Source: Candidatus Scatosoma sp.
GTDB lineage: Bacteria > Bacillota > Clostridia > Christensenellales > Borkfalkiaceae
NCBI GenBank assembly: GCA_045128055.1
Contig: JBGVRC010000120.1
Location: forward strand, 21,133 to 85,132
Direction of reading: 5' to 3'
Length of the DNA: 64,000 nucleotides
Shown here: one piece after another, positions 3,063-31,043 of the stretch
How the letters are laid out: every line of letters begins with the position of its first letter
Position numbering within the stretch: position 1 is the first letter of the stretch
Notes under the pieces: generated by a model
What the model was told of the DNA's origin: nothing
What the model saw: the letters and a program-made list of their open reading frames with translations, nothing else
Database searches by the model: none
Position numbers and translations under genes: made by a program

Positions 3063-5090
3063 TTAACCAAGACGAGTGCCGCTCAAAACGTCCTTGTTTT
3101 CAGGCACGATCAAGGACAAAACGCCGTTTTCGTCTTCCGCCGCCATAATCATACCTTCGGACACGACGCCGCATACCTTTCTGGGCGCAAGGTTGGTGAC
3201 GAACACCACTTTTTTGCCTACCATTTCTTCGGGTTTGAAATGCTTTGCAATCCCCGAAACGATGGTGCGCGTTTCATCGCCGAATTTCACCGTTTCTTTC
3301 AAAAGCTTGGACGATTTGGGTACGGGCTCGCACGCGATAATTTCCCCTACGCGCAATTCCACTTTTAGAAAATCGTCAAAGGAAATTTCGGGCGTTTTTT
3401 CTTTTTCTTCTTCATTTTCCACACCCGTGTCCGTATTCACCGCATTTTCAGCGGGTTTTTGTTCGGTTGCTTGCGGAGCGGTTTTCGCCATTTCCGCCGC
3501 GTATGCCGCCGCTTGTTCTTCACGGATTTTTTCGATTGCAGGCGCAAGCGTCTTGAAATCCAAGCGCGCAAACAAGGGGGAAATCGCCGTCACCGTTACG
3601 CTGTCGCGAAGCGCAAAGCTTTCGCATTCTTCCAGCGTTCTGCTTACCCCGCCGTATGCCGCGAAGATTTTTTCGCTCGTTTCCGGCATAAAGCTGTCCA
3701 AAAGCGAAGCGCCGATTTGGATTGCTTCGGCAAGGTTATACAACACGTCGTTAAGACGCGCTTTCTTTGCTTCGTCCTTGGCGAGCGCCCAAGGCATCGT
3801 TTCATCGATGTATTTATTCGCACGGCGGAAAAGAGCAAACACTTCGCTGATTGCATCCGCAATACGCAATTCGTCCGCTTTCGCACGTACTTTGGATACA
3901 ACGCCCGTCACCGTTGCTTTAAATTCCGCGTCGGGATCTTCTTCGTTTGCAGGCAATGATTTTACAACCGTACCGCCGAAATATTTATCAATCATCGCAA
4001 TCGTACGGCTGACAAGGTTACCCAAAACGTTGGCAAGCTCGGTGTTGAAACGTTCGGTTACAAGTTCCCAAGTAATGGAACCGTCGTTGTCAAACGGCAT
4101 TTCGTGCAATACGAAATAGCGCACAGCATCCACCCCGAACAAACGCGCCAAATCATCCGCGTAAATCACGTTGCCTTTGGATTTACTCATTTTACCATCG
4201 CCTTGCAAAAGCCAAGGGTGGCCAAACACCTGCTTGGGCAAAGGTTCACCCAAAGCCATCAAGAAAATAGGCCAGTAAATGGTGTGGAAACGCAAAATAT
4301 CCTTACCGATAAGATGCAAATCCGCAGGCCAGTATTTTTTATATTTTTCGTCGTGGTTGCCATCCACGTCAAAGCCGATACCCGTGATGTAGTTGGTTAA
4401 GGCATCCAACCAAACGTATACAACGTGACGGCTGTCAAATTCTACGGGCACGCCCCACGTAAAGGACGTACGGGATACGCACAAATCCTGCAACCCCTTT
4501 AAAAGGAAGTTGTTCATCATCTCGTTTTTACGGGAAACGGGCTGAATAAACTCGGGATGGGTGTTGATATGCTCGATAAGCTTGTCCGCATACTTGCTCA
4601 TTTTAAAGAAGTACGCTTCTTCCTTCGCAGGCTTTACGTCCCTGCCGCAGTCGGGGCATTTCCCGTCTACAAGCTGGCTTTCCGTCCAGAAGGATTCGCA
4701 AGGAGTACAGTACATACCTTCGTAGTAGCCCTTGTAAATATCCCCTTGGTCGTAGAACTTCTTAAAAATTTTCGACACTTGTTTCACGTGATACTCGTCC
4801 GTCGTACGCATAAATTTATCGTACGAAGTGCCCATCAAGTCCCAAATGCCTTGGATATCACCCGCGATTTTATCCACGAAAGCCTGCGGCGTTACGCCTG
4901 CCGCTTCCGCTTTTTCCTGAATTTTTTGACCGTGTTCGTCCGTACCCGTTTGGAAGAAAACGTCATAGCCTTCCTTTCTTTTAAAGCGCGCGATCGCGTC
5001 CGCCAAAATCGCTTCGTAGGTGTTGCCGATGTGGGGCTTGCCCGAAGTATACGCAATCGCCGTCGTAATATAATAAGGTTTCTTTGCCAT
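3063..5090 (-). CDS. metG: methionine--tRNA ligase with C-terminal tRNA-binding domain
   Basis: 675 aa; class I HIGH-type motif (GKPHIGN) and KMSKS present. Confidence 0.95.
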   Translation of the reverse strand: MAKKPYYITTAIAYTSGKPHIGNTYEAILADAIARFKRKEGYDVFFQTGTDEHGQKIQEKAEAAGVTPQAFVDKIAGDIQGIWDLMGTSYDKFMRTTDEYHVKQVSKIFKKFYDQGDIYKGYYEGMYCTPCESFWTESQLVDGKCPDCGRDVKPAKEEAYFFKMSKYADKLIEHINTHPEFIQPVSRKNEMMNNFLLKGLQDLCVSRTSFTWGVPVEFDSRHVVYVWLDALTNYITGIGFDVDGNHDEKYKKYWPADLHLIGKDILRFHTIYWPIFLMALGEPLPKQVFGHPWLLQGDGKMSKSKGNVIYADDLARLFGVDAVRYFVLHEMPFDNDGSITWELVTERFNTELANVLGNLVSRTIAMIDKYFGGTVVKSLPANEEDPDAEFKATVTGVVSKVRAKADELRIADAISEVFALFRRANKYIDETMPWALAKDEAKKARLNDVLYNLAEAIQIGASLLDSFMPETSEKIFAAYGGVSRTLEECESFALRDSVTVTAISPLFARLDFKTLAPAIEKIREEQAAAYAAEMAKTAPQATEQKPAENAVNTDTGVENEEEKEKTPEISFDDFLKVELRVGEIIACEPVPKSSKLLKETVKFGDETRTIVSGIAKHFKPEEMVGKKVVFVTNLAPRKVCGVVSEGMIMAAEDENGVLSLIVPENKDVLSGTRLG

Positions 5091-5866: not shown

Positions 5867-6377
5867 ATTTGTTTTACCTATTATTATCCCCCTTATTTTT
5901 TTACTTTCCTTCGCCTTTGCCGCCATTAGAAAAGTGCGGGTGTACGATTCGTTCGCGGAAGGGGTAAAAGGCGCGATTCCGCTTATTTTATCCATTTTTC
6001 CATACATAGCCGTCATCAGCATTCTTTCTAAATTGTTGGAAGTGAGCGGTTTGGGCGCAAAAATCGCCGATTTTCTATCCCCCGTCTTTCATTTTACGGG
6101 TATCCCCGAAGAAATCGCTCCGCTTCTGCTCGTAAAACCCCTTTCGGGGGGCGGCAGCGTCGCCGTTTTGTCGGAAATTTTAGAAAGGTACGGCGCGGAT
6201 AGCTATATTTCCCGTTGCGCTTGCGTAATCTACGGCGCGTCCGAAACGATTTTTTACGTCGGCGCGGTGTATTTTGCGGGCTTAAAACGCAAAAAGTTAA
6301 ACGTCGCTTTGATAATCGCCGTTCTTTCTTTTCTTGCTTCCGCCATTTTCGCTTGTTTTTTATGTCGTTTTTTATAA
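5862..6377 (+). CDS. spmB: spore maturation protein B
   Basis: 171-aa membrane ORF translationally coupled to spmA. Confidence 0.8.
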   Translation: MKFVLPIIIPLIFLLSFAFAAIRKVRVYDSFAEGVKGAIPLILSIFPYIAVISILSKLLEVSGLGAKIADFLSPVFHFTGIPEEIAPLLLVKPLSGGGSVAVLSEILERYGADSYISRCACVIYGASETIFYVGAVYFAGLKRKKLNVALIIAVLSFLASAIFACFLCRFL

Positions 6378-6474: not shown

Positions 6475-9400
6475 ATGAAAAAATGGCTTTCTATTTTGGC
6501 GTTATCGGCGATTTTTGCGTTGGTAGGCTGTAACGGTACGGGCGCGAGCAACTCTAACAGCTCCACCCCCGACAATCCTTCTTCCAGCCAACAAAGCTCG
6601 CCTTTGGATAGCTCCGAAATCGACCCCGACCACGTACACGCCAACCAAAACGGCGACGCTTATTGCGACGGCTGCGGCACGCCGATTTTGGCTACCTTGG
6701 ACGTTTTTTCCATCAACGACTTACACGGTAAGTTTTCCGACACCGACGAAAACTGCGGCGTAGACGAAATGACGACCTTCCTTCGCAATAAACAGCAAGC
6801 CAACCCCAACACCGTGATTTTATCGGCTGGGGATATGTGGCAGGGCAGCCCTGAATCCAACCTTACCTACGGCAATATCATTACCGAATGGATGAACGAT
6901 TTGGGCTTTGCCGCGATGACGCTTGGCAATCACGAATACGACTGGGGTGAAGAATACATCTCGCAAAACGCCGAGCTGGCAAACTTCCCCATTTTGGGTA
7001 TCAACGTGTTTGACCCCGACACCAACGAACGGGAAGAATACGCCGCTCCGTCCGTTTTGATTGAAAGAAGCGGCGTTAAAATCGGTATTATCGGCGCAAT
7101 CGGGGATTGTATGTCGTCCATCGCCCCCGATAAAACGACGGACGTATATTTCAAAACGGGCAACGAGCTCACCAACCTTATCAAGGACGAATCCACTTCC
7201 TTGCGCGAACAAGGCGCGGATATCATCATCTACACCGTGCACGATTCGGAAAACTCCAACGAATCGTATTACGACGTAGAGCTTTCCAACGGCTACGTGG
7301 ATTTGGTATTTGAAGGCCATTCCCACTCTACCGTTCGCCAAAAGGATAAATACGGCGTATGGCATTTGCAGGCGGGCGGCGACAATGGCACGGGGCTTTC
7401 CCACGCGGAAATTAAAATCGACATCATTTCGGGTGCAATCACCGTTGCGCAAACCAAAATCGTCGAACACAGCGCCTATCTCCACCTTGACGACGACCCC
7501 ATCGTAAACGAATTGATGGAAAAATACGCCGACCAAATCTCCAAAATGAACGAGTATTTGGGTATGAACGACAGCTATCGAAACTCGGACGCTTTGGCAA
7601 GCTACGCGGCGGAAGCTATGTTCAACGTCGGGTACGCGCATTGGAACAGCGACGCGCGCTATGCAGGCAAAATCGTACTCGGCGGCGGGTTCTTAAACGT
7701 GCGCAGCCCGTACAAGCTGGACGCGGGCAAAGTCACCTACGGCGATATTTACCCCCTGTTCCCGTTCGATAACCTGCTCGTGCTTTGTAAGGTAAACGGA
7801 AATCGACTTTTGGAACAGTTTATTTACAGCTCTAACTACGTTTGCTATTACGGCGAAGACGGCAACCAAATCAAAAACAACGTACAAAACAACGAAACGT
7901 ACTACGTAATCGTAGACACCTATTGCGCAAACTATAACTTTAAGGGCATGGGTTGGCTGGAAATCGTCGAATATTACCAAGACAACTATTATACGCGCGA
8001 CGCGCTCGCGCAGTTTATTAAGGACGGGGGTATGTCCGCGAAATCCGCTGACAAAACGAGTACCATTCCCGAGCTTCTCGACCTTGGTTTTAGCTTGGCA
8101 GACAACGAAGAAACCAAGGAAAAATACCGTACCGTCGGCAAAATCGTCGCTTTGGAAAACACCACCTACGGCAACGCGGTCATTGAAGATGAAGACGGCA
8201 ACCAAATCTACGTCTACGGTATGTACGATACCGACCGCAACCGCTACGACGCGATGGCAACCAAGCCCCAAGAAGGGGACGTCGTCACCGTAGAAGGGGT
8301 GATTAAAAACTTCGTCAACGCCTATTACGGGCAAAAAATCGAATTTGTCAACGCCACCGTTTTGGAAATTCAAGACGACTTCCCGGGCAACGATAAAGAC
8401 GACCCCTTAACCCCGCCTGAAACGGATGCAAACTACACCCCCATTCGCGAAATTTTAGAAATCGGCAACGCGCTTCCCGAAGGCGGCGAAACCACGGAAA
8501 GCTATATCATTAAAGGTACGCTTACAAGCAACCCCACCCACCCCTACGGGAATATGTACGTTCAAGACGAAAACGGCGACGCCCTTTATATCTACGGTCT
8601 GTACGACGTAAACGGCAATCGTTACGACGCGATGGCAACCAAGCCCCAAATGGGCGACGAAGTCGTTTTGCAGGGCGTAATTAAAAACTATTACAACAAA
8701 TCGGGCGAGCAAATCATCGAAATGATAAGCTCCACCCTTTTGGAAATCGTTGACGATACGCCAAACGGCGACACACCCGATACACTTTCCACGCTTACCT
8801 TAAATAAAAACTTCGGCGGCGACCTTTCCGAATACGACACGGGTACGTACGGACAAGGCGCGGTTGGCGGCGTGTATTTCGAATATTATCGCGCCTATAA
8901 AACCTTTGGCGAAAATCTCGTAACCAGCCTGCTCCCTTCCCCCGGCGAGCTGTCGGTAGGTCACGCGGAAGGCGCGCTGTACAACACTACCCCTATCTAC
9001 GGCATACAGTCCATTTCTATCACCTATAAAAGCGACTCGGCGGCTATTTTGTACACAAGCGACGATAGAATTGCGGACGCAACGGCGTACACCCTGCCCA
9101 AAGCTACGTCCTTCCAAACGATAAGCTTTGAAGTGGATACGGACAATTTCTTTAAAATTATCACGGGCAACTCCACCCTTTCCTTGCAGGAAATTTCCAT
9201 TTCCTACACCGACGAAGCAGTAGCCTACAACACCCAAAAACAGCTTTCGGGAATAGAAGCTTTCCGCTTGAACCCCACCACCTTTGAAGGTACGCTCGTT
9301 GCGGGGCAAAGCTCCGTTTCCGTACCCGTAAAAGTAGAATATGACGGGGGCAGGTACGAGATTAAGCAAACAAAGACCTATACCTACTACACCGTAGAAT

Positions 9401-19195: not shown

Positions 19196-19622
19196 ATGTG
19201 GAAAACGGAAATTTATCCACATAGCTTTTTGTGAAAATGAAAAAATTATGCAATATTTTGTCAAATTATGCATATATCCACTTGGCAAAACCCCGCAAAA
19301 TTTCTATTTTGTGGATAAATAAGGGTTGTCCACCCGTCGATTTCACAAATTGTGGATAACTATCACAAATCCTTTGTGGATAAAAAAGCATTTTCACGGA
19401 TTTCAGGGATTAATCGGGCAAAAAGGGGGCTTTTTCTGTGGATAACTATACCAAAACAAGCTTTTTCAAATCCTTTCAAAACCCTTGTTTTGGTGGAAAA
19501 CTTTTCTTTCGGGTGTATAATTTGCTCTTTATGCACGCTTTTTTGAATAAAATCGGGGCATTTATCCACAAACAAACGTTCTTTTGTTGTTTTATCACAA
19601 AACTTATCCACAGTTATCCACA
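19196..19622. other. DnaA-box cluster 1 (oriC half or DnaA-titrating cluster)
   Basis: Perfect TTATCCACA/TGTGGATAA at 19213, 19310, 19351, 19375, 19437, 19562, 19604 and 19614; one-mismatch boxes at 19196 and 19592; AT-rich stretch 19231-19275; GGGTTGTCCACC at 19323. Confidence 0.8.
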
Positions 19623-26018: not shown

Positions 26019-26879
26019 ATGATAAAAGTAGTTGGTATTAAATTTAAAAACGGCGGGAAGCTGTATTACTTTTCGCCCAAAGCAGGGGACGTGTACGAAC
26101 GGAATATGCCCGTCGTTGTGGAAACTTCGCGCGGTTTGGAATACGCTTGGGTGGCGTATCCCGAAAAAATCGTTTCCGACGACGAAGTGGTACAACCCTT
26201 AAAGCCCGTCATTCGTATCGCCACGCAAAAGGACAAAGAATATTACGCCGCTTGCGAAGCAAAACGCCCGCAAGCTATGCAAATTTGCAGGGAAAAAATA
26301 GCGGCGCGGGGCTTGGAAATGAAGCTTGTTGACTGCGAATACGCTTTTGACGGCAGTAAGATTTCTTTCTTTTTCACGTCCGACAATCGCGTGGATTTCA
26401 GAGAGCTTGTCAAAGATTTGGCTTCCACTTTCCATTCCCGTATCGAGCTTCGCCAAGTGGGTACGCGCGACGAAACCAAGTATTTGGGCGGGCTTGCGCC
26501 CTGCGGCAGAATTTGTTGCTGCGCGGGGAATATGCCCGAATTTAAAAAGGTGAGCGTGAAGATGGCGAAAACGCAGGGTCTTTCCTTGAACCCCGGTAAA
26601 ATCAGCGGGCTTTGCGGTAGGTTGATGTGCTGTTTGAGCTATGAAAACGATTACTATGCCGAAGCCAGCAAGAAAATGCCGAAAATCGGCTCGGAAGTCA
26701 GCACGCTGGAAGGCAAGGGCATCGTCGTGTCCGTCAATATGCTGAAAATGCAGGTAAAAGTGAAGATTGACGATAGAAACGGCGACTGGATTTATAAGGA
26801 TTTCGACGTGGAAGACGTACGCTTTAAAAAGCCTATCAACAGCGACAAAGCGGACGATGACGACAAAGATGATGAATAA
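26019..26879 (+). CDS. yaaT: PSP1-domain stage 0 sporulation protein YaaT/RicT
   Basis: 286 aa; PSP1 core and Cys-rich CGRICCC / CGRLMCCL motifs. Confidence 0.9.
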   Translation: MIKVVGIKFKNGGKLYYFSPKAGDVYERNMPVVVETSRGLEYAWVAYPEKIVSDDEVVQPLKPVIRIATQKDKEYYAACEAKRPQAMQICREKIAARGLEMKLVDCEYAFDGSKISFFFTSDNRVDFRELVKDLASTFHSRIELRQVGTRDETKYLGGLAPCGRICCCAGNMPEFKKVSVKMAKTQGLSLNPGKISGLCGRLMCCLSYENDYYAEASKKMPKIGSEVSTLEGKGIVVSVNMLKMQVKVKIDDRNGDWIYKDFDVEDVRFKKPINSDKADDDDKDDE

Positions 26880-26888
26880 TAACTAAAT

Positions 26889-27067
26889 TTGCCCTTGCGG
26901 GCAAGTGAAGTTTACTTTGTAAGTGAAGTTATCCTTTGGATAGTGAAGTTTTGCCTTTGGCAAAGTAAAAAATAATTTCCATAACTTGCGCACAGCGCAA
27001 ACTTCACTTGTTTATAAACAAACTTCACTGCGTAGCAACTTCACTTTCGCGACAGCGAAAACTTCAC
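26889..27067. repeat. array of 8 distinct mini-hairpins separated by a constant heptamer (GTGAAGT x3, then ACTTCAC x4)
   Basis: Hairpins: TTGCCC/GGGCAA, TTAC/GTAA, TATCC/GGATA, TTTGCC/GGCAAA, TTGCGC/GCGCAA, TTGTTTA/TAAACAA, TGC/GCA, TTTCGC/GCGAAA. GTGAAGT at 26905, 26923, 26943; ACTTCAC at 27001, 27022, 27038, 27061. Confidence 0.9.
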
Positions 27068-27072
27068 CCTTA

Positions 27073-27129
27073 ACAAGCCACCAGGTATGCGATGAAATAG
27101 AAAAAACAGCCTTTTTAGGGCTGTTTTTT
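27073..27129. repeat. 57-nt repeat copy A (motif M12 + terminator hairpin)
   Basis: 27073-27109 is identical over 37 nt to 34796-34832, and near-identical through the CAGCC...GGCTG hairpin and T-run. Confidence 0.9.
27075..27096 (+). repeat. dispersed motif M12 (CCAGG class)
   Basis: AAGCCACCAGGTATGCGATGAA; 14/15; part of repeat copy A. Confidence 0.85.
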
Positions 27130-27816
27130 GTTTTGATCAATTATTGCCAATAAAACGGAATAAACGTCTCTATTACATTTTTCAATAGGGCTATTGTATT
27201 CATATGTAGGCTCAATAATATCGGATAAATAAATTATAACTCCGTCCACATGATGATTTGTTATTGTTTCACTGTTGGCTGTTTCCGTTGCCGTTGCTGC
27301 GCCGATAATTGCACCCGCTTCCCCAGCTATAAGCCCACCTAAAAAAGCTCTTCCTATTGCTTTATTTTTATTTGTATCGGTTTTTGTATGATGGGAAGTG
27401 GAAATTTTTAATTCCGCTTTTATAATTTTTTCAAAAGTAATAACTTTTTTTCCAAAGATTAAAAACTTATTTTTCTCATCTATAGCAACAATCCAATTTC
27501 TTTTTATATCCACCAATTCTTCGCTCTCATCATAAAAACCTATTATTTTAGATATTTTATAATTTTGATTTAACCAATTAAAATACGCTTCTTTTACTTT
27601 TTCTATCCTTTCCTTTTCTTTCTTCCTTTCTTCTTCTTTTTTCATTTTTGCTTTTTCTTCGCTTTCTTTTTCAAGCTTTAACATTTTAATAATAAAAATA
27701 ATCATAGCTATACCAAAAAGTATAACACCTATAATAGAAAGCTCTGTCATATTTACAAACATACTGGCACAAATAAATACTAATGCCAATATTATAAAAA
27801 AAATAAAAAGTTTCAT
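27115..27816 (-). CDS. hypothetical membrane protein (2 TM + charged coiled coil + Gly-zipper)
   Basis: 233 aa from MKLFIFFIIL (AGGAGC RBS); KMKKEEERKKEKERIEK; GGLIAGEAGAIIGAA; the ORF-track extension to 27918 was rejected. Confidence 0.6.
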   Translation of the reverse strand: MKLFIFFIILALVFICASMFVNMTELSIIGVILFGIAMIIFIIKMLKLEKESEEKAKMKKEEERKKEKERIEKVKEAYFNWLNQNYKISKIIGFYDESEELVDIKRNWIVAIDEKNKFLIFGKKVITFEKIIKAELKISTSHHTKTDTNKNKAIGRAFLGGLIAGEAGAIIGAATATETANSETITNHHVDGVIIYLSDIIEPTYEYNSPIEKCNRDVYSVLLAIIDQNKKQP

Positions 27817-27884
27817 AAAAGCTCCTAAAAATAAAAAAGTACGCCAACCGAAGCTGACGTACAAAAACACAGACTCCGATTGTC

Positions 27885-28025
27885 GCTCAACAAACTTTAC
27901 GTGAAATGGGTAAAACACTTACATAAAAAGAATCTGTATTTTATCAAATTCAATATGTAAGTGCGCAAAAAAGAGCTATTTTTACAAAAAAATAAACCCA
28001 AATTCACCTATTAAGTTTGTTGAGC
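27885..28025. repeat. nested inverted repeats in AT-rich spacer
   Basis: Outer GCTCAACAAACTT (27885-27897) / AAGTTTGTTGAGC (28013-28025); inner CACTTACAT (27916-27924) / ATGTAAGTG (27955-27963). Confidence 0.7.
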
Positions 28026-28071
28026 ATTATTAGTATAACACATATTCATTTTTTTATCAAGTATATTTATA

Positions 28072-28107: not shown

Positions 28108-28806
28108 TTATAATATAGGATTCTTTCGTTCCTTGCCTTGTCCGCGGGGATATTTCGGGGGAGTGGGGCTCGTCTTTTTCACCACCGCCAACACCCGTTC
28201 GCCGTAGTTTTCCGGCAATTCGTATGCATACGCCTTTTCCAGCTTACCGCCCAAAACCTTATACGCCGTTTTCGCTTCGTCGATTTCCGTTTTGTCGCCG
28301 CTCTTGTACGCGATAAAGCTTCCGCCGACCTTGACAAAGGGCATACAGTATTCGCAAAGGGTGTTCATTCTCGCCACCGCGCGCGCCGTTACGCAATCGT
28401 ATTTTTCCCGAAAATTTTTATCCCGCGCCGCGTCTTCCGCGCGAATGTTATAAATATGCACGTTTTGCATATTCAACTTATCCACAACCACTTTCAAAAA
28501 CTCGCATTTTTTCCCCACGCTTTCAAAAAGATCAAAGGATAAATCGTCGCGTAAAATTTTTAAGACCATCGACGGAAAACCCGCGCCCGAGCCGATTTCC
28601 GCCACTTTCGCGTTGGTTTTAAACAAATCCATACCCGCCGCGCTGTCTAAAAAATGCTTGTACGTGACGTCTTTTTCTTCCAAAATCGCCGTCAGATTGT
28701 ATTTTTGATTGTATTCCAAGAGAAAAGCACGAAAAATTTCCAACTTTTCCCGCTTTTCTCCTAAAATCTCTTGTTCGTAAATCGCGTAAATATCTCTCAT
28801 TTCCAT
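28108..28806 (-). CDS. rsmG: 16S rRNA (guanine527-N7)-methyltransferase RsmG/GidB
   Basis: 232 aa; EIGSGAGFPS SAM loop; typical GidB length. Confidence 0.92.
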   Translation of the reverse strand: MEMRDIYAIYEQEILGEKREKLEIFRAFLLEYNQKYNLTAILEEKDVTYKHFLDSAAGMDLFKTNAKVAEIGSGAGFPSMVLKILRDDLSFDLFESVGKKCEFLKVVVDKLNMQNVHIYNIRAEDAARDKNFREKYDCVTARAVARMNTLCEYCMPFVKVGGSFIAYKSGDKTEIDEAKTAYKVLGGKLEKAYAYELPENYGERVLAVVKKTSPTPPKYPRGQGKERKNPIL

Positions 28807-28868
28807 AGCTCCTTTATTATACCACCTTTTTTATCAAATAGCAATCCTTTTTTTATACTTTTCCCCAG

Positions 28869-29123
28869 CTTTCCACAGCGGTGTAGATAGTTTTATCCAC
28901 AATGTTTATAACTGCTGTGGATTACTCAATTTTTGTATAATTATACATTTTATTTTTGTATTTTTTCCGATGAATTTTATATTTTTTCACTTTTTTATAC
29001 ACTTTTCCACAAAATTTCCACTTTTTTATCCACCTAAAAAATAGGGGTTGTCCACCGCTTGAAAAATCGCGCAAACCCTTTATATTCCAAGGAAAAATTT
29101 GGCTTTTTTAGGGGTTGTCCACA
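28869..29123. other. DnaA-box cluster 2 with AT-rich putative unwinding tract, adjacent to dnaN
   Basis: Perfect TTATCCACA at 28893; one-mismatch boxes at 28916, 29003, 29026 and 29115; AGGGGTTGTCCAC at 29043 and 29110; 75-nt AT-rich run 28925-29000. Confidence 0.7.
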
Positions 29124-29936: not shown

Positions 29937-31043
29937 ATGAAATTTGTATGTGACGGAATGGTTCTTTCGGACGCGGCGTTTACCGTATGCAAGGCTTGCG
30001 CGGTAAAAACCATCACCCCTGTTTTGGAATGTATCAAGCTCAAAGCGGAAAACGACGGGTTGACCTTGACTGCGTACGACGGCGAAATTTCCATTAAAAA
30101 GAAAATCAACGCGGAAATTATGGAAGAAGGCGAAGTTTGCGTAAACGGCAAAACGTTTGCCGATTTCGTGGGGAAAATTTCTTCCTTTGAAGTCGTTATT
30201 CATACCGAAGAAAACGGTATGTTTATTAAATATGGCGACAGCGAATCCCGTATGCAAATTCTTCCCGCGGACGATTTTCCTCGTATCAATAAATCGTTGG
30301 ACGGCAAGGAGTATTTCGAAATCAAGGAAAGAGATTTAAAAAACTTGATTGCAAAAATCGTATTTTGTTGCGCTACGGACGAAAGCAGACCTATTTTGAA
30401 AGGCACTTTGTTGGAAGCGAAAAACGGAGCTTTGGAATGTACCGCTCTCGACGGGTTTAGAATGGCGTACGGCGCTTGCGAAACGCAGGAAACGAGCGCG
30501 GATATGAAAATCGTTTGCCCGGCAAGAACGCTTTTGGAAATTTCCCGTATGCTCGGCGATGAAGAAAATATCAAGGTTTACGCGGACAAAAATTCCCTTT
30601 CCGTTACGGTAAAGGACACCGTTATCACGTCCCGTTTGTACGCAGGCGAATTTGTAAAAAGAGAAAATATCTATCCCATCGATTTCACCACCTACGTATC
30701 GGTGAACAGAGCGGAGCTTATCGACAGCGTAGAACGCGCTTCCGTTTTGATCCGCGGGGATAAAAACAACCTTATTACCTTTGATATCAAAAACGGTAAA
30801 ATCGTATTGACGGCAAATTCGGACATGGGTAAAGTAGAAGAAAGCGTAGCGGCGAATTTGGACGGTAAGGAACTGAAAATCGCTATGAACGGCAAGTATT
30901 TGTTGGACGCGGTGAAGGCTTTGGAAGAAGACGAAGTGTTGCTTTCCTTCAATACGTCCGTATCCCCTTTCACGCTGGAAAACGCTGCGGAAAAGAAATG
31001 CAAATACTTAATTCTCCCCGTACGTACGGGCGCAGGTCAGTAA
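29937..31043 (+). CDS. dnaN: DNA polymerase III beta sliding clamp
   Basis: 368 aa, three-domain clamp length; MKFVCDG... with PILKGTLLEA, typical of DnaN. Confidence 0.95.
   Translation: MKFVCDGMVLSDAAFTVCKACAVKTITPVLECIKLKAENDGLTLTAYDGEISIKKKINAEIMEEGEVCVNGKTFADFVGKISSFEVVIHTEENGMFIKYGDSESRMQILPADDFPRINKSLDGKEYFEIKERDLKNLIAKIVFCCATDESRPILKGTLLEAKNGALECTALDGFRMAYGACETQETSADMKIVCPARTLLEISRMLGDEENIKVYADKNSLSVTVKDTVITSRLYAGEFVKRENIYPIDFTTYVSVNRAELIDSVERASVLIRGDKNNLITFDIKNGKIVLTANSDMGKVEESVAANLDGKELKIAMNGKYLLDAVKALEEDEVLLSFNTSVSPFTLENAAEKKCKYLILPVRTGAGQ

Follow-up and report, generated by a model that had tools for sequence, protein, structure and literature searches.

Paired Gut-1-type hairpin arrays downstream of yaaT in Candidatus Scatosoma: family architecture and a tentative reading as folded single-stranded DNA

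Positions 26889-27067 of the 64-kb stretch of Candidatus Scatosoma sp. DNA analysed here (the window, numbered 1-64000) hold two mirror-image four-hairpin arrays around a central A/T-rich stretch, and the element is a member of Gut-1, a known, uncharacterised Rfam family. Direct reading of the sequence bears out the layout given in an earlier note on this DNA, eight short hairpins separated by a heptamer that reads GTGAAGT in the left half and ACTTCAC in the right. The left half matched the Rfam Gut-1 model (RF01706) on the plus strand at 26880-26954, with 59.9 bits and E values of 1e-10 to 9e-12 against a curated gathering score of 50 bits; the Rfam search proposed in the earlier note thereby overturns its statement that no known architecture could be matched. 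The right half, searched alone, matched Gut-1 on the minus strand at 27069-26996 with 37 bits (E 5e-6), below the cut-off. Because the left half matches on the plus strand and the right half on the minus strand, the midway flip of the heptamer corresponds to two convergent Gut-1-type arrays. Gut-1 was the sole Rfam family found across the whole window, in which no transfer RNA or transfer-messenger RNA (tmRNA) was detected; matches to MIR6135, to small nucleolar RNA families and to direct repeats of clustered regularly interspaced short palindromic repeats (CRISPR), the last at 13-14 bits, were at chance level.

The array is tentatively read as an extragenic hairpin-array repeat that would act as a folded single strand, with single-stranded DNA (ssDNA) favoured as the selected form at a likelihood placed slightly under even. 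Each unit consists of a short hairpin, free in sequence and constrained in structure, followed by a fixed 7-nt linker, and the active form would be the folded single strand rather than duplex DNA or a long rod of paired heptamers. ssDNA is favoured because the stems are nearly all Watson-Crick, the loops follow a rule of DNA mini-hairpins, the units are very short, the halves show dyad symmetry and presence is sporadic.

Layout of the array and conservation of its hairpins

The array starts 9 nt past the stop codon of the PSP1/YaaT (RicT) gene (26019-26879) and ends 34 nt short of a terminator that serves both the yaaT transcript and a convergent, low-GC gene for a membrane protein (27918-27115), both genes lying where the earlier note had placed them. 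The features are as follows, hairpins (H1 to H8) and their linkers being taken from direct reading.

26882-26888, plus strand: outer linker L0, ACTAAAT, a degenerate form of the family consensus ACTAAGT, aligning with the first unpaired segment of the Gut-1 model
26889-26964, plus strand: left half-array, H1-GTGAAGT-H2-GTGAAGT-H3-GTGAAGT-H4, the Rfam Gut-1 match
26889-26904: H1, TTGCCC/TTGC/GGGCAA
26912-26922: H2, TTAC/TTT/GTAA
26930-26942: H3, TATCC/TTT/GGATA
26950-26964: H4, TTTGCC/TTT/GGCAAA
26905-26911, 26923-26929 and 26943-26949: the three left linkers, GTGAAGT
26965-26985, no strand assigned: A/T-rich centre GTAAAAAATAATTTCCATAAC, 21 nt, 'Type II'
26965-26971 and 26979-26985: degenerate terminal linkers of the centre, GTAAAAA and CCATAAC (reverse complement of GTTATGG), respectively
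26986-27067, minus strand: right half-array, H5-ACTTCAC-H6-ACTTCAC-H7-ACTTCAC-H8-ACTTCAC as read on the plus strand, Gut-1-like
26986-27000: H5, TTGCGC/ACA/GCGCAA
27008-27021: H6, TTGTTTATAAACAA
27029-27037: H7, TGC/GTA/GCA (TGCGTAGCA)
27045-27060: H8, TTTCGC/GACA/GCGAAA
27001-27007, 27022-27028, 27038-27044 and 27061-27067: the four right linkers, ACTTCAC
27068-27074, plus strand: outer variant linker CCTTAAC (reverse complement of GTTAAGG, the usual array-terminal linker), the right boundary
27075-27083, no strand assigned: conserved right flank AAGCCACCA, beyond which strain-variable cargo starts (strain comparison)
27101-27129, no strand assigned: bidirectional intrinsic terminator, context rather than part of the repeat (terminator scan and inverted repeat)

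The heptamer GTGAAGT/ACTTCAC occurs 12 times in the window, with seven occurrences inside the array, compared with a mean of 4.2 and a maximum of 10 in shuffled whole-window controls. Exact GTGAAGTT 8-mers are likewise concentrated, seven of the nine copies in the window lying in the array, which agrees with the seven array copies counted in the earlier note. That note was also right that every hairpin starts with T and ends with A and that the spacer between the halves is A-rich, the spacer length being corrected from 20 to 21 nt; the outer heptamer CCTTAAC and the bidirectional terminator are additions to its description. The folding calculation it had proposed gave z-scores of -5.2 to -6.3 against shuffled sequence, as RNA or as DNA and on either strand, a value expected for any cluster of palindromes.

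Conservation of structure rather than of sequence, as the earlier note had proposed, is established by comparison across the family. A set of 486 segments lying between exact GTGAAGT heptamers contained 328 distinct units, and 85% of these formed at least three contiguous Watson-Crick pairs from the segment ends, compared with 2.5% of shuffles, the mean number of pairs per unit being 4.36 versus 0.40. The first base was T in 317 and the last base A in 319 of the 328 units, and an independent set with the linker GTGAAAT gave 65 paired units out of 70. Within the window lineage, across nine contigs with 100% identical YaaT, 99% of cells were paired as opposed to 27-51% with partners slid; the single two-sided change among them, in H8 of contig L007 (L numbers identify the loci and contigs compared), leaves strain-level covariation too sparse to stand as evidence alone. 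Inter-heptamer spacers ranged from 8 to 23 nt in a broad distribution with no helical phasing.

Distribution and architecture of the family

Gut-1 was introduced by Weinberg et al. in 2010 as a candidate small RNA (sRNA) of the 'human gut only', the supplementary text stating that it occurs in human gut sequences and is absent from any sequenced organism, and nothing further (PMC2864571). Listed in Rfam since 2010, the family is a 16-year orphan with a one-sentence description and no proposed function, and a literature search on Gut-1 found nothing besides the 2010 paper. The window element resembles the published family in its consecutive short hairpins, at least three in number and with covarying stems, in the GUGAAAU-like linkers between them, and in its origin from gut Clostridia of humans and animals, the window-lineage contigs being metagenome assemblies of gut-associated uncultivated bacteria. 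It extends beyond the Rfam model, which comprises three hairpins of one half on the GUGAA strand only, in that each of its two inverted halves has four hairpins and that it carries variant linkers at the termini and internal linkers of the GTGAAGT type. In the 2010 Stockholm file, the flanks of BAAZ01000095.1 and BAAZ01025322.1 read GUGAUAU three to four times and then AUAUCAC three to four times, so the second, inverted half recurs there yet never entered the model. At its gathering score the model gave only 3 matches in 18 loci, all 18 of which bear arrays; this, together with the missed right half of the window copy, indicates that the family is much larger than Rfam annotation shows.

The search of related genomes for GTGAAGT-hairpin arrays suggested in the earlier note was carried out with one genome per species, using three occurrences of the pattern AGTGAAGTT, and returned at least 120 Gut-1-type loci. 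Nearly all of the matches listed were metagenome-assembled genomes of gut or rumen Clostridia, phage contigs carrying further copies, and the hosts among the matches listed included Oscillospiraceae, Acutalibacteraceae, Christensenellaceae, Candidatus Scatosoma, Ruminococcus and Feifaniaceae. Exceptions by title among the same matches were Prevotellaceae (L241) and Bacillota (L291). At least 13 assemblies carried copies on two or more contigs, and neither isolate phage genomes nor PLSDB plasmids yielded a blastn match to the array.

The layout seen most often in 135 heptamer clusters was '+++----' or its mirror '++++---' (42 clusters), followed by '+++---' (17), and divergent layouts were nearly absent; the convergent 3+4 arrangement of the window is this commonest family layout. 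Single arrays with no inverted partner were also common (53 of 136), usually comprising four heptamers and four hairpins, followed by a variant linker GTTAAGG, GTTATGG or GTTGTGG and then A/T-rich sequence. In the majority of double arrays, termed Type I, the left end reads ACTAAGT-TTGCCC and the centre holds its complement GGGCAAACTTA; in most Type I loci it is the final five linker bases at the outer edge, together with the 5' arm of the first hairpin, that are complementary to the centre (TAAGTTTGCCC/GGGCAAACTTA). The same complementarity recurs with unrelated sequence in the GTGAAAT type (L363, L403, L415, L448), as GAAATAAATCC/GGATTTATTTC and GAAATTCGCC/GGCGAATTTC, so that the first hairpin arm has two alternative partners. 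Within the GTGAAGT type alone this covariation is weak, the sequence being nearly invariant, and it becomes convincing only on comparison with the GTGAAAT type. The window copy lacks the complementarity and belongs to a minority, Type II, in which the two arrays abut via their terminal linkers; these read GTAAAAA...CCATAAC in the window copy, and L254, L283 and the phage contig L155 have GTTATGG...CCATAAC.

Several discrete linker types were found, namely GTGAAGT, GTGAAAT, GTGATAT, TCGATAT, GCGATAT, ATGAATT and GTGAATT/GTTAATT, each homogeneous within an array. Arrays of different linker types can adjoin, and a single genome, or even a single locus, may contain several types. This discreteness would imply cognate readers. 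At the family level several points appear to be new: the organisation into four-unit arrays that most often form inverted doubles, the discrete types of linker, the variant linkers at array ends, the host range, the presence in phages and, on the strand complementary to that of the Rfam model, a loop rule of DNA type.

In L246, at about 2520-2910, an ATATCAC-linker array of more than 20 units converges on a four-unit GTGAAGT array, giving a double with mismatched linkers; the long array was built by amplifying a three-hairpin block (GTTGCGCAGCAAC, GAAGCCCCTCGTGGCTTCC, GCTTGCATAGCAAGC), and L246 thus shows array growth by block duplication.

Phage contigs provide further copies. The predicted phage contig L155 holds two full double arrays, at 3845-4055 and 7847-8058, which are inverted diverged copies with units shuffled and duplicated between them; they bracket a 3.8-kb capsid module, one following the portal gene and the other preceding the head-tail genes. 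The phage-like contig L041, which carries terminase genes, has a four-unit array followed by tandem AGATACG heptamers at 6045-6160 (the same region being present in L207), directly upstream of a rolling-circle Rep (HUH) gene (PF23343, phrog_3584), and L207, the same contig, additionally has a convergent TCGATAT/ATATCGA double array at 754-922.

Strand asymmetry and the molecule under selection

Departures from Watson-Crick pairing are rare in the stems. Counts made on the GTGAAGT strand gave 7 internal G.T and 19 A.C in about 1,600 stem positions of the GTGAAGT set, and the GTGAAAT set had 2 G.T and 4 A.C in 380 positions, whereas terminator-like hairpins of the same loci had 3.2% G.T and about 11% non-Watson-Crick positions. 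Wobble-compatible stem positions favoured the ACTTCAC strand, 23 versus 9 with both sets pooled. Zero folding energy as isolated RNA was predicted for about 40% of units, among them every unit of 8-11 nt. Loops were strongly asymmetric between strands, as the following counts indicate (linker-complement strand versus the other strand where two values are compared).

GNA triloops: GTGAAGT set, 57/136 (plus 36 ANA) versus 5; GTGAAAT set, 21/30 versus 0
GNNA tetraloops: GTGAAGT set, 32/73 versus 0; GTGAAAT set, 17/22 versus 0
GNRA among GNNA loops: GTGAAGT set, 10/32; GTGAAAT set, 12/17
Closing pair 5'-C...G-3': GTGAAGT set, 79-85%; GTGAAAT set, 51/52
Exact GCGNAGC: GTGAAGT set, 14 versus 5; GTGAAAT set, 13 versus 0
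Exact GCGNNAGC: GTGAAGT set, 27 versus 0; GTGAAAT set, 13 versus 0

Most GNNA loops of the GTGAAGT set were GNYA rather than GNRA, and UNCG tetraloops were all but missing from the Rfam strand (2 cases). Two hairpins of the window carry exact DNA mini-hairpin motifs on the plus strand, GCGTAGC in H7 and GCGACAGC in H8, and the minus strand gives C-GCAA-G for H1 and C-AAA-G for H2-H4. The oligonucleotides d(GCGNAGC) and d(GCGNNAGC) melt at 70-76.5 C, compared with 39 C for r(GCGAAAGC), and such DNA mini-hairpins bind single-stranded-DNA-binding protein (SSB) poorly (PMC13037366). They are found at the G4 primase site, at ssiA/RepB' and in the hairpin promoters of the N4 virion RNA polymerase (vRNAP) (PMC13037366). 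Three features, namely the Watson-Crick stems, the loop rule and the absence of the array in relatives, fit a hairpin repeat acting at the DNA level better than a classical sRNA.

On the proposed ssDNA reading, the palindromes on the ACTTCAC strand of each half would form C:G-closed GNA/GNNA mini-hairpins, with the heptamers left single-stranded between them as the sequence-specific determinant, and the hairpins would be selected, and probably recognised, in ssDNA by a putative trans-acting factor. Because one half is inverted relative to the other, both DNA strands bear a single array each in what would be the active orientation. Its location in the 3' untranslated region (UTR) of yaaT, and hence in a transcript, would be incidental, reflecting where such repeats are tolerated. 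A bolder form of the proposal, credible to us at a level clearly below even, is that Gut-1-type arrays constitute a new class of strand-specific DNA structural element and not sRNA genes: ultra-stable, SSB-resistant tandem mini-hairpins (C-GNA-G, C-GNNA-G) displaying discrete families of unpaired 7-nt linkers, in inverted pairs that give one active array per strand, read by a putative ssDNA-acting machinery of gut Clostridia and phages, for which priming or restart, nicking, recombination and mobilisation are candidate uses. If this form is true, the Rfam model lies on the wrong strand and is assigned to the wrong molecule.

The strongest competitor is a structured RNA, a string of hairpin beads in the yaaT 3' UTR and elsewhere a small RNA, which could serve as a 3'-exonuclease barrier or processing module next to a terminator, or as a scaffold or sponge presenting heptamers to an RNA-binding protein or endoribonuclease; it is a serious possibility, though one held well short of even. 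Gut-1 was rated as certainly RNA by its authors and Rfam ('RNA? Y', on covariation; PMC2864571), and the window copy passes the Rfam cut-off. Lying between the yaaT stop codon and the terminator, the window array is, to judge from its position, almost certainly transcribed with yaaT. Across the family, double arrays had a same-strand upstream gene in 57 versus 15 cases and a terminator after rather than before them in 18 versus 7, biases that fit a 3'-UTR RNA element, and two copies lie in intergenic gaps inside a phage late operon. The predominance of GNRA among the GNNA loops of the GTGAAAT type would suit an RNA read from the ATTTCAC strand, and short stems may not tolerate wobble pairs whatever the molecule. 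These observations weigh against the ssDNA reading, as do three others: hairpin sequences differ between units, unlike copy-and-paste repetitive extragenic palindromic (REP) sequences or miniature inverted-repeat transposable elements; no transposase, HUH enzyme or recombinase recurs among 775 open reading frames (ORFs) within about 4 kb of the arrays at the at least 120 loci; and array orientation shows no bias relative to GC skew (singles 21 versus 13, doubles 31 versus 26).

Conversely, several observations sit poorly with a classical sRNA. G.U pairs amount to 0.4-1.2%, compared with the 3.2% of the terminator-like hairpins, and the roughly 40% of units with zero predicted energy are too short to fold by nearest-neighbour energies. 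The designed-looking loops, GNA/GNNA with C-G closing, lie on the strand opposite to the Rfam model, and those of the GTGAAGT type are mostly GNYA. Single arrays show no bias relative to the neighbouring gene and no sense-strand terminator excess (6 versus 8), the latter being the ground on which an independent sRNA gene with its own terminator was rejected. A single transcript offers no obvious role for the obligate inverted partner; the two additional pairs of the Rfam model, between heptamer positions 6-7 and positions 1-2 of the next heptamer, were rejected since they do not covary across linker types; and near relatives do without the element at this locus. Should the RNA reading be right, the functional strand is probably opposite to that of the Rfam model, judging by the loops, and, as most members escape the current model, its strand and boundaries would still have to be revised. 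The earlier note had listed several candidate roles, of which ssDNA structure and structured noncoding RNA (ncRNA) stay live; an origin or oriT relic and an insulator gained no specific support.

The choice between DNA and RNA is now directly testable: the DNA reading predicts that the ACTTCAC-type strand folds, that units are far more stable as DNA than as RNA and that the heptamers are single-stranded. If it is true, a REP-like or ssi-like class of element is added to the Firmicutes and the database annotation is corrected.

By analogy, the element would work most like REP sequences and bacterial interspersed mosaic elements (BIMEs) or like ssDNA mini-hairpin signals, yet it fails defining features of each. 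REP, BIME and REPIN elements of proteobacteria are extragenic hairpin repeats located after 3' ends or between convergent genes, arranged in inverted pairs and bearing a short single-stranded motif; REP repeats are present or absent between close strains, are passively transcribed into 3' UTRs and are recognised as ssDNA hairpins. Gut-1 arrays share the extragenic hairpins, the sites at 3' ends and between convergent genes, the inverted pairs and the strain-variable presence, and on the ssDNA reading would also share the unpaired motif beside the hairpin, the passive transcription and the recognition as ssDNA. They are intergenic, dispersed and multi-copy, and lie most often between convergent genes, as 32 of 79 double arrays do. 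Sequence conservation extends to the palindromes in REP repeats but is confined to the linker in Gut-1 arrays; in addition, no RAYT recurs within about 4 kb of the arrays at the at least 120 loci, and copy number per genome is apparently low. The likeness to ssDNA mini-hairpin signals (G4 ori-c, ssiA/RepB', N4 vRNAP promoters) comprises the C:G-closed GNA/GNNA loops, as in H7 and H8 on the plus strand of the window, stems of 2-6 bp, enrichment on one strand and the occurrence of some arrays in phages, one of them directly upstream of the rolling-circle Rep gene. The known signals are single sites or at most three hairpins and have no conserved heptamer linkers, and the fixed orientation relative to fork movement expected of ssi sites was not found, given the absence of GC-skew bias. 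Array orientation showed no bias relative to the majority gene strand either.

Strain variation, neighbouring genes and the remaining alternatives

At the window locus, holB-yaaT-gap-rsmG-ypsA-dnaN synteny is conserved, and the array is absent from the yaaT-rsmG gap in relatives with YaaT 98, 95, 94, 89, 86, 85 and 83% identical, the 98% relative having the same membrane-protein cargo and no array. In two of these seven relative sets the gap is merely 96-107 nt and holds a terminator alone. This absence in near relatives, which bears on the dispensability raised in the earlier note, and the diversity of array neighbours, which are housekeeping genes with no conserved partner, mark the array, by its behaviour, as a dispersed gain-and-loss repeat and not as a locus-specific yaaT regulator or a part of oriC.

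Sequence divergence among strains with identical YaaT sets in on the right-hand side of the array, after ...CCTTAACAAGCCACCA, and the gap between array and rsmG (window 27084-28060; L001-L007, L344) is a strain-variable hot spot among them. Its cargo is the 267-aa membrane protein in the window (with a homologue in L344 annotated PH_gly_zipper), a DUF6809 gene that may be accompanied by HTH_XRE, an HTH_XRE gene on its own, or no cargo at all. L002 and L005 each have an HTH cassette lying between the array and a further, partial copy, with a duplicated rsmG terminator also bordering the cassette, and alternative versions of H6 have apparently been exchanged between the two copies; the empty site of L004 looks like a recombinant between the array and such a second copy. 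One unit is deleted in L007.

The different cargo directly to the right of the array, the bracketed cassette of L002/L005 and the recombinant-like L004 could point to a structure-specific recombination site or cassette boundary, attC-like, that moves small gene cassettes, an explanation we regard as improbable. attC sites are recognised as folded ssDNA. The arrays resemble them in conserving structure over sequence, in having conserved 7-nt end elements and in lying next to strain-variable small gene cargo, and the end linkers GTTAAGG/CCTTAAC loosely resemble the GTTRRRY/RYYYAAC core sites. A gene of about 118 aa also adjoins the right half in 6 loci and is found between two half-arrays in L271. 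However, no integrase or recombinase recurs near the arrays, most of which have no variable cargo and lie between housekeeping genes, and cargo loss is equally explained by homologous recombination between copies sharing at least 110 bp. Whereas attC is a single long, imperfect hairpin that has extrahelical bases, is bounded by RYYYAAC...GTTRRRY and lies next to intI, a Gut-1 array has eight independent mini-hairpins; its end linkers, GTTAAGG-type at the 5' and CCTTAAC-type at the 3' side, stand in the reverse order, and an integron attC identity was rejected.

A duplex-DNA array, in which the heptamers are sites for a heptad- or half-site-binding protein, is somewhat less probable still. Proposed analogues are ParB/parS half-sites, the P1 ParB box A ATTTCAC, the omega-repressor WATCACW heptads, iterons and transposase terminal inverted repeats; GTGAAAT/ATTTCAC and ATATCAC may resemble such published heptad or half-site motifs. 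The direct and then inverted order of the heptamers would suit this explanation, as would the position of the window copy, 2-3 kb from the GC-skew minimum and from a DnaA-box cluster. The unphased 8-23 nt spacing does not, and on the same irregularity iterons, heptad operators and parS-type sites were rejected. Duplex binding also leaves the structural selection on the palindromes and the strand-asymmetric loops unexplained, and several linker types occur in one genome or locus, other copies lie beside unrelated housekeeping genes and the same origin-proximal locus in close relatives has no array. An origin-related function was rejected on this last ground, the array being absent from the syntenic origin-proximal gap in all seven relative sets.

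Least probable of all, with very little likelihood left to it, is the RNA or ssDNA rod of stacked four-way junctions with paired heptamers and mini-hairpin side arms suggested in the earlier note: minimum-energy folds of both strands do use GTGAAGT/ACTTCAC pairings and score far better than shuffles, and most double arrays have complementary linkers in both halves, including TCGATAT/ATATCGA (L207, L239, L262), GTGATAT/ATATCAC (L132) and the 2010 seed flanks, but inverted duplication yields such complementarity automatically, and the pairing is not supported as a conserved feature given the 53 partnerless single arrays, the unequal linker counts (3 versus 4) that are the norm, the non-complementary doubles (GTGAAGT with ATATCAC in L246, and with AATTCAC/AATTAAC in L274/L312), the uncompensated heptamer mutation to GTAAAGT in L005, and the pairing of the Type I centre with the left end, which is topologically incompatible with nested left-right pairing.

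Two further identities were considered and rejected. The likeness to CRISPR arrays and phage mini-arrays lies in the alternation of constant and variable elements and in occurrence in both hosts and phages; CRISPR repeats are 23-47 nt with non-palindromic spacers, while here the constant element is 7 nt and flips midway, the variable elements are palindromes of 8-23 nt, and there are no cas genes. An intrinsic terminator was dismissed as no plus-strand unit was called terminator-like and the real terminator is separate, although the scan does flag H1 as terminator-like when read on the minus strand (26904-26889).

Within one Type I subfamily, a conserved unit of about 480 bp stands beside unrelated genes in 11 loci (L237, L276, L284, L285, L293, L306, L307, L317, L322, L323, L335). 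It consists, in order, of an A-run with an extra hairpin AGCGTG...TTAACGGAG...CACGCT, the arrays, a long hairpin CAACAGAAAGAGAGAAC...GTTCTCTCTTTCTGTTG, GGGCTTAGCCC and TTGCGTTTGACCGGTCAAATGCGA, and could be a larger mobile unit or a longer ncRNA.

The gene of about 118 aa (MKDSELR...) starts 17-40 nt past the ACTTCAC end in L230, L233, L259, L266, L271 and L278, and occurs also in L239 and L327; it was the sole unusual recurrent neighbour, counted in 7 loci, and no toxin or RNA-binding protein recurs among the 775 ORFs. The L271 copy of the gene stands with a right half-array on one side and a left half-array on the other. From our own reading of its sequence, unconfirmed by family search, we take its product to resemble the four-helix-bundle '23S rRNA intervening-sequence protein' family.

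The cumulative GC skew has its minimum at about 28-30 kb of the window, which places the replication origin inside it. Nine perfect TTATCCACA DnaA boxes are clustered at 19197-19622, between GerAC-like and CvpA-like genes, with a second, weaker cluster at 28478-29123 upstream of ypsA-dnaN; dnaN itself (29937-31043) is not preceded by dnaA.

A different dispersed repeat, with motifs including GTCATCCTGAGCGAAGCGAAGGATC and TGTCATACCGAGCGGAGCAAC, occurs in Clostridia and phage contigs (L338 at 3355-4027, L041 at about 6230-6260, L228, L248, L261 and L280) and fills the yaaT-rsmG gap of one relative.

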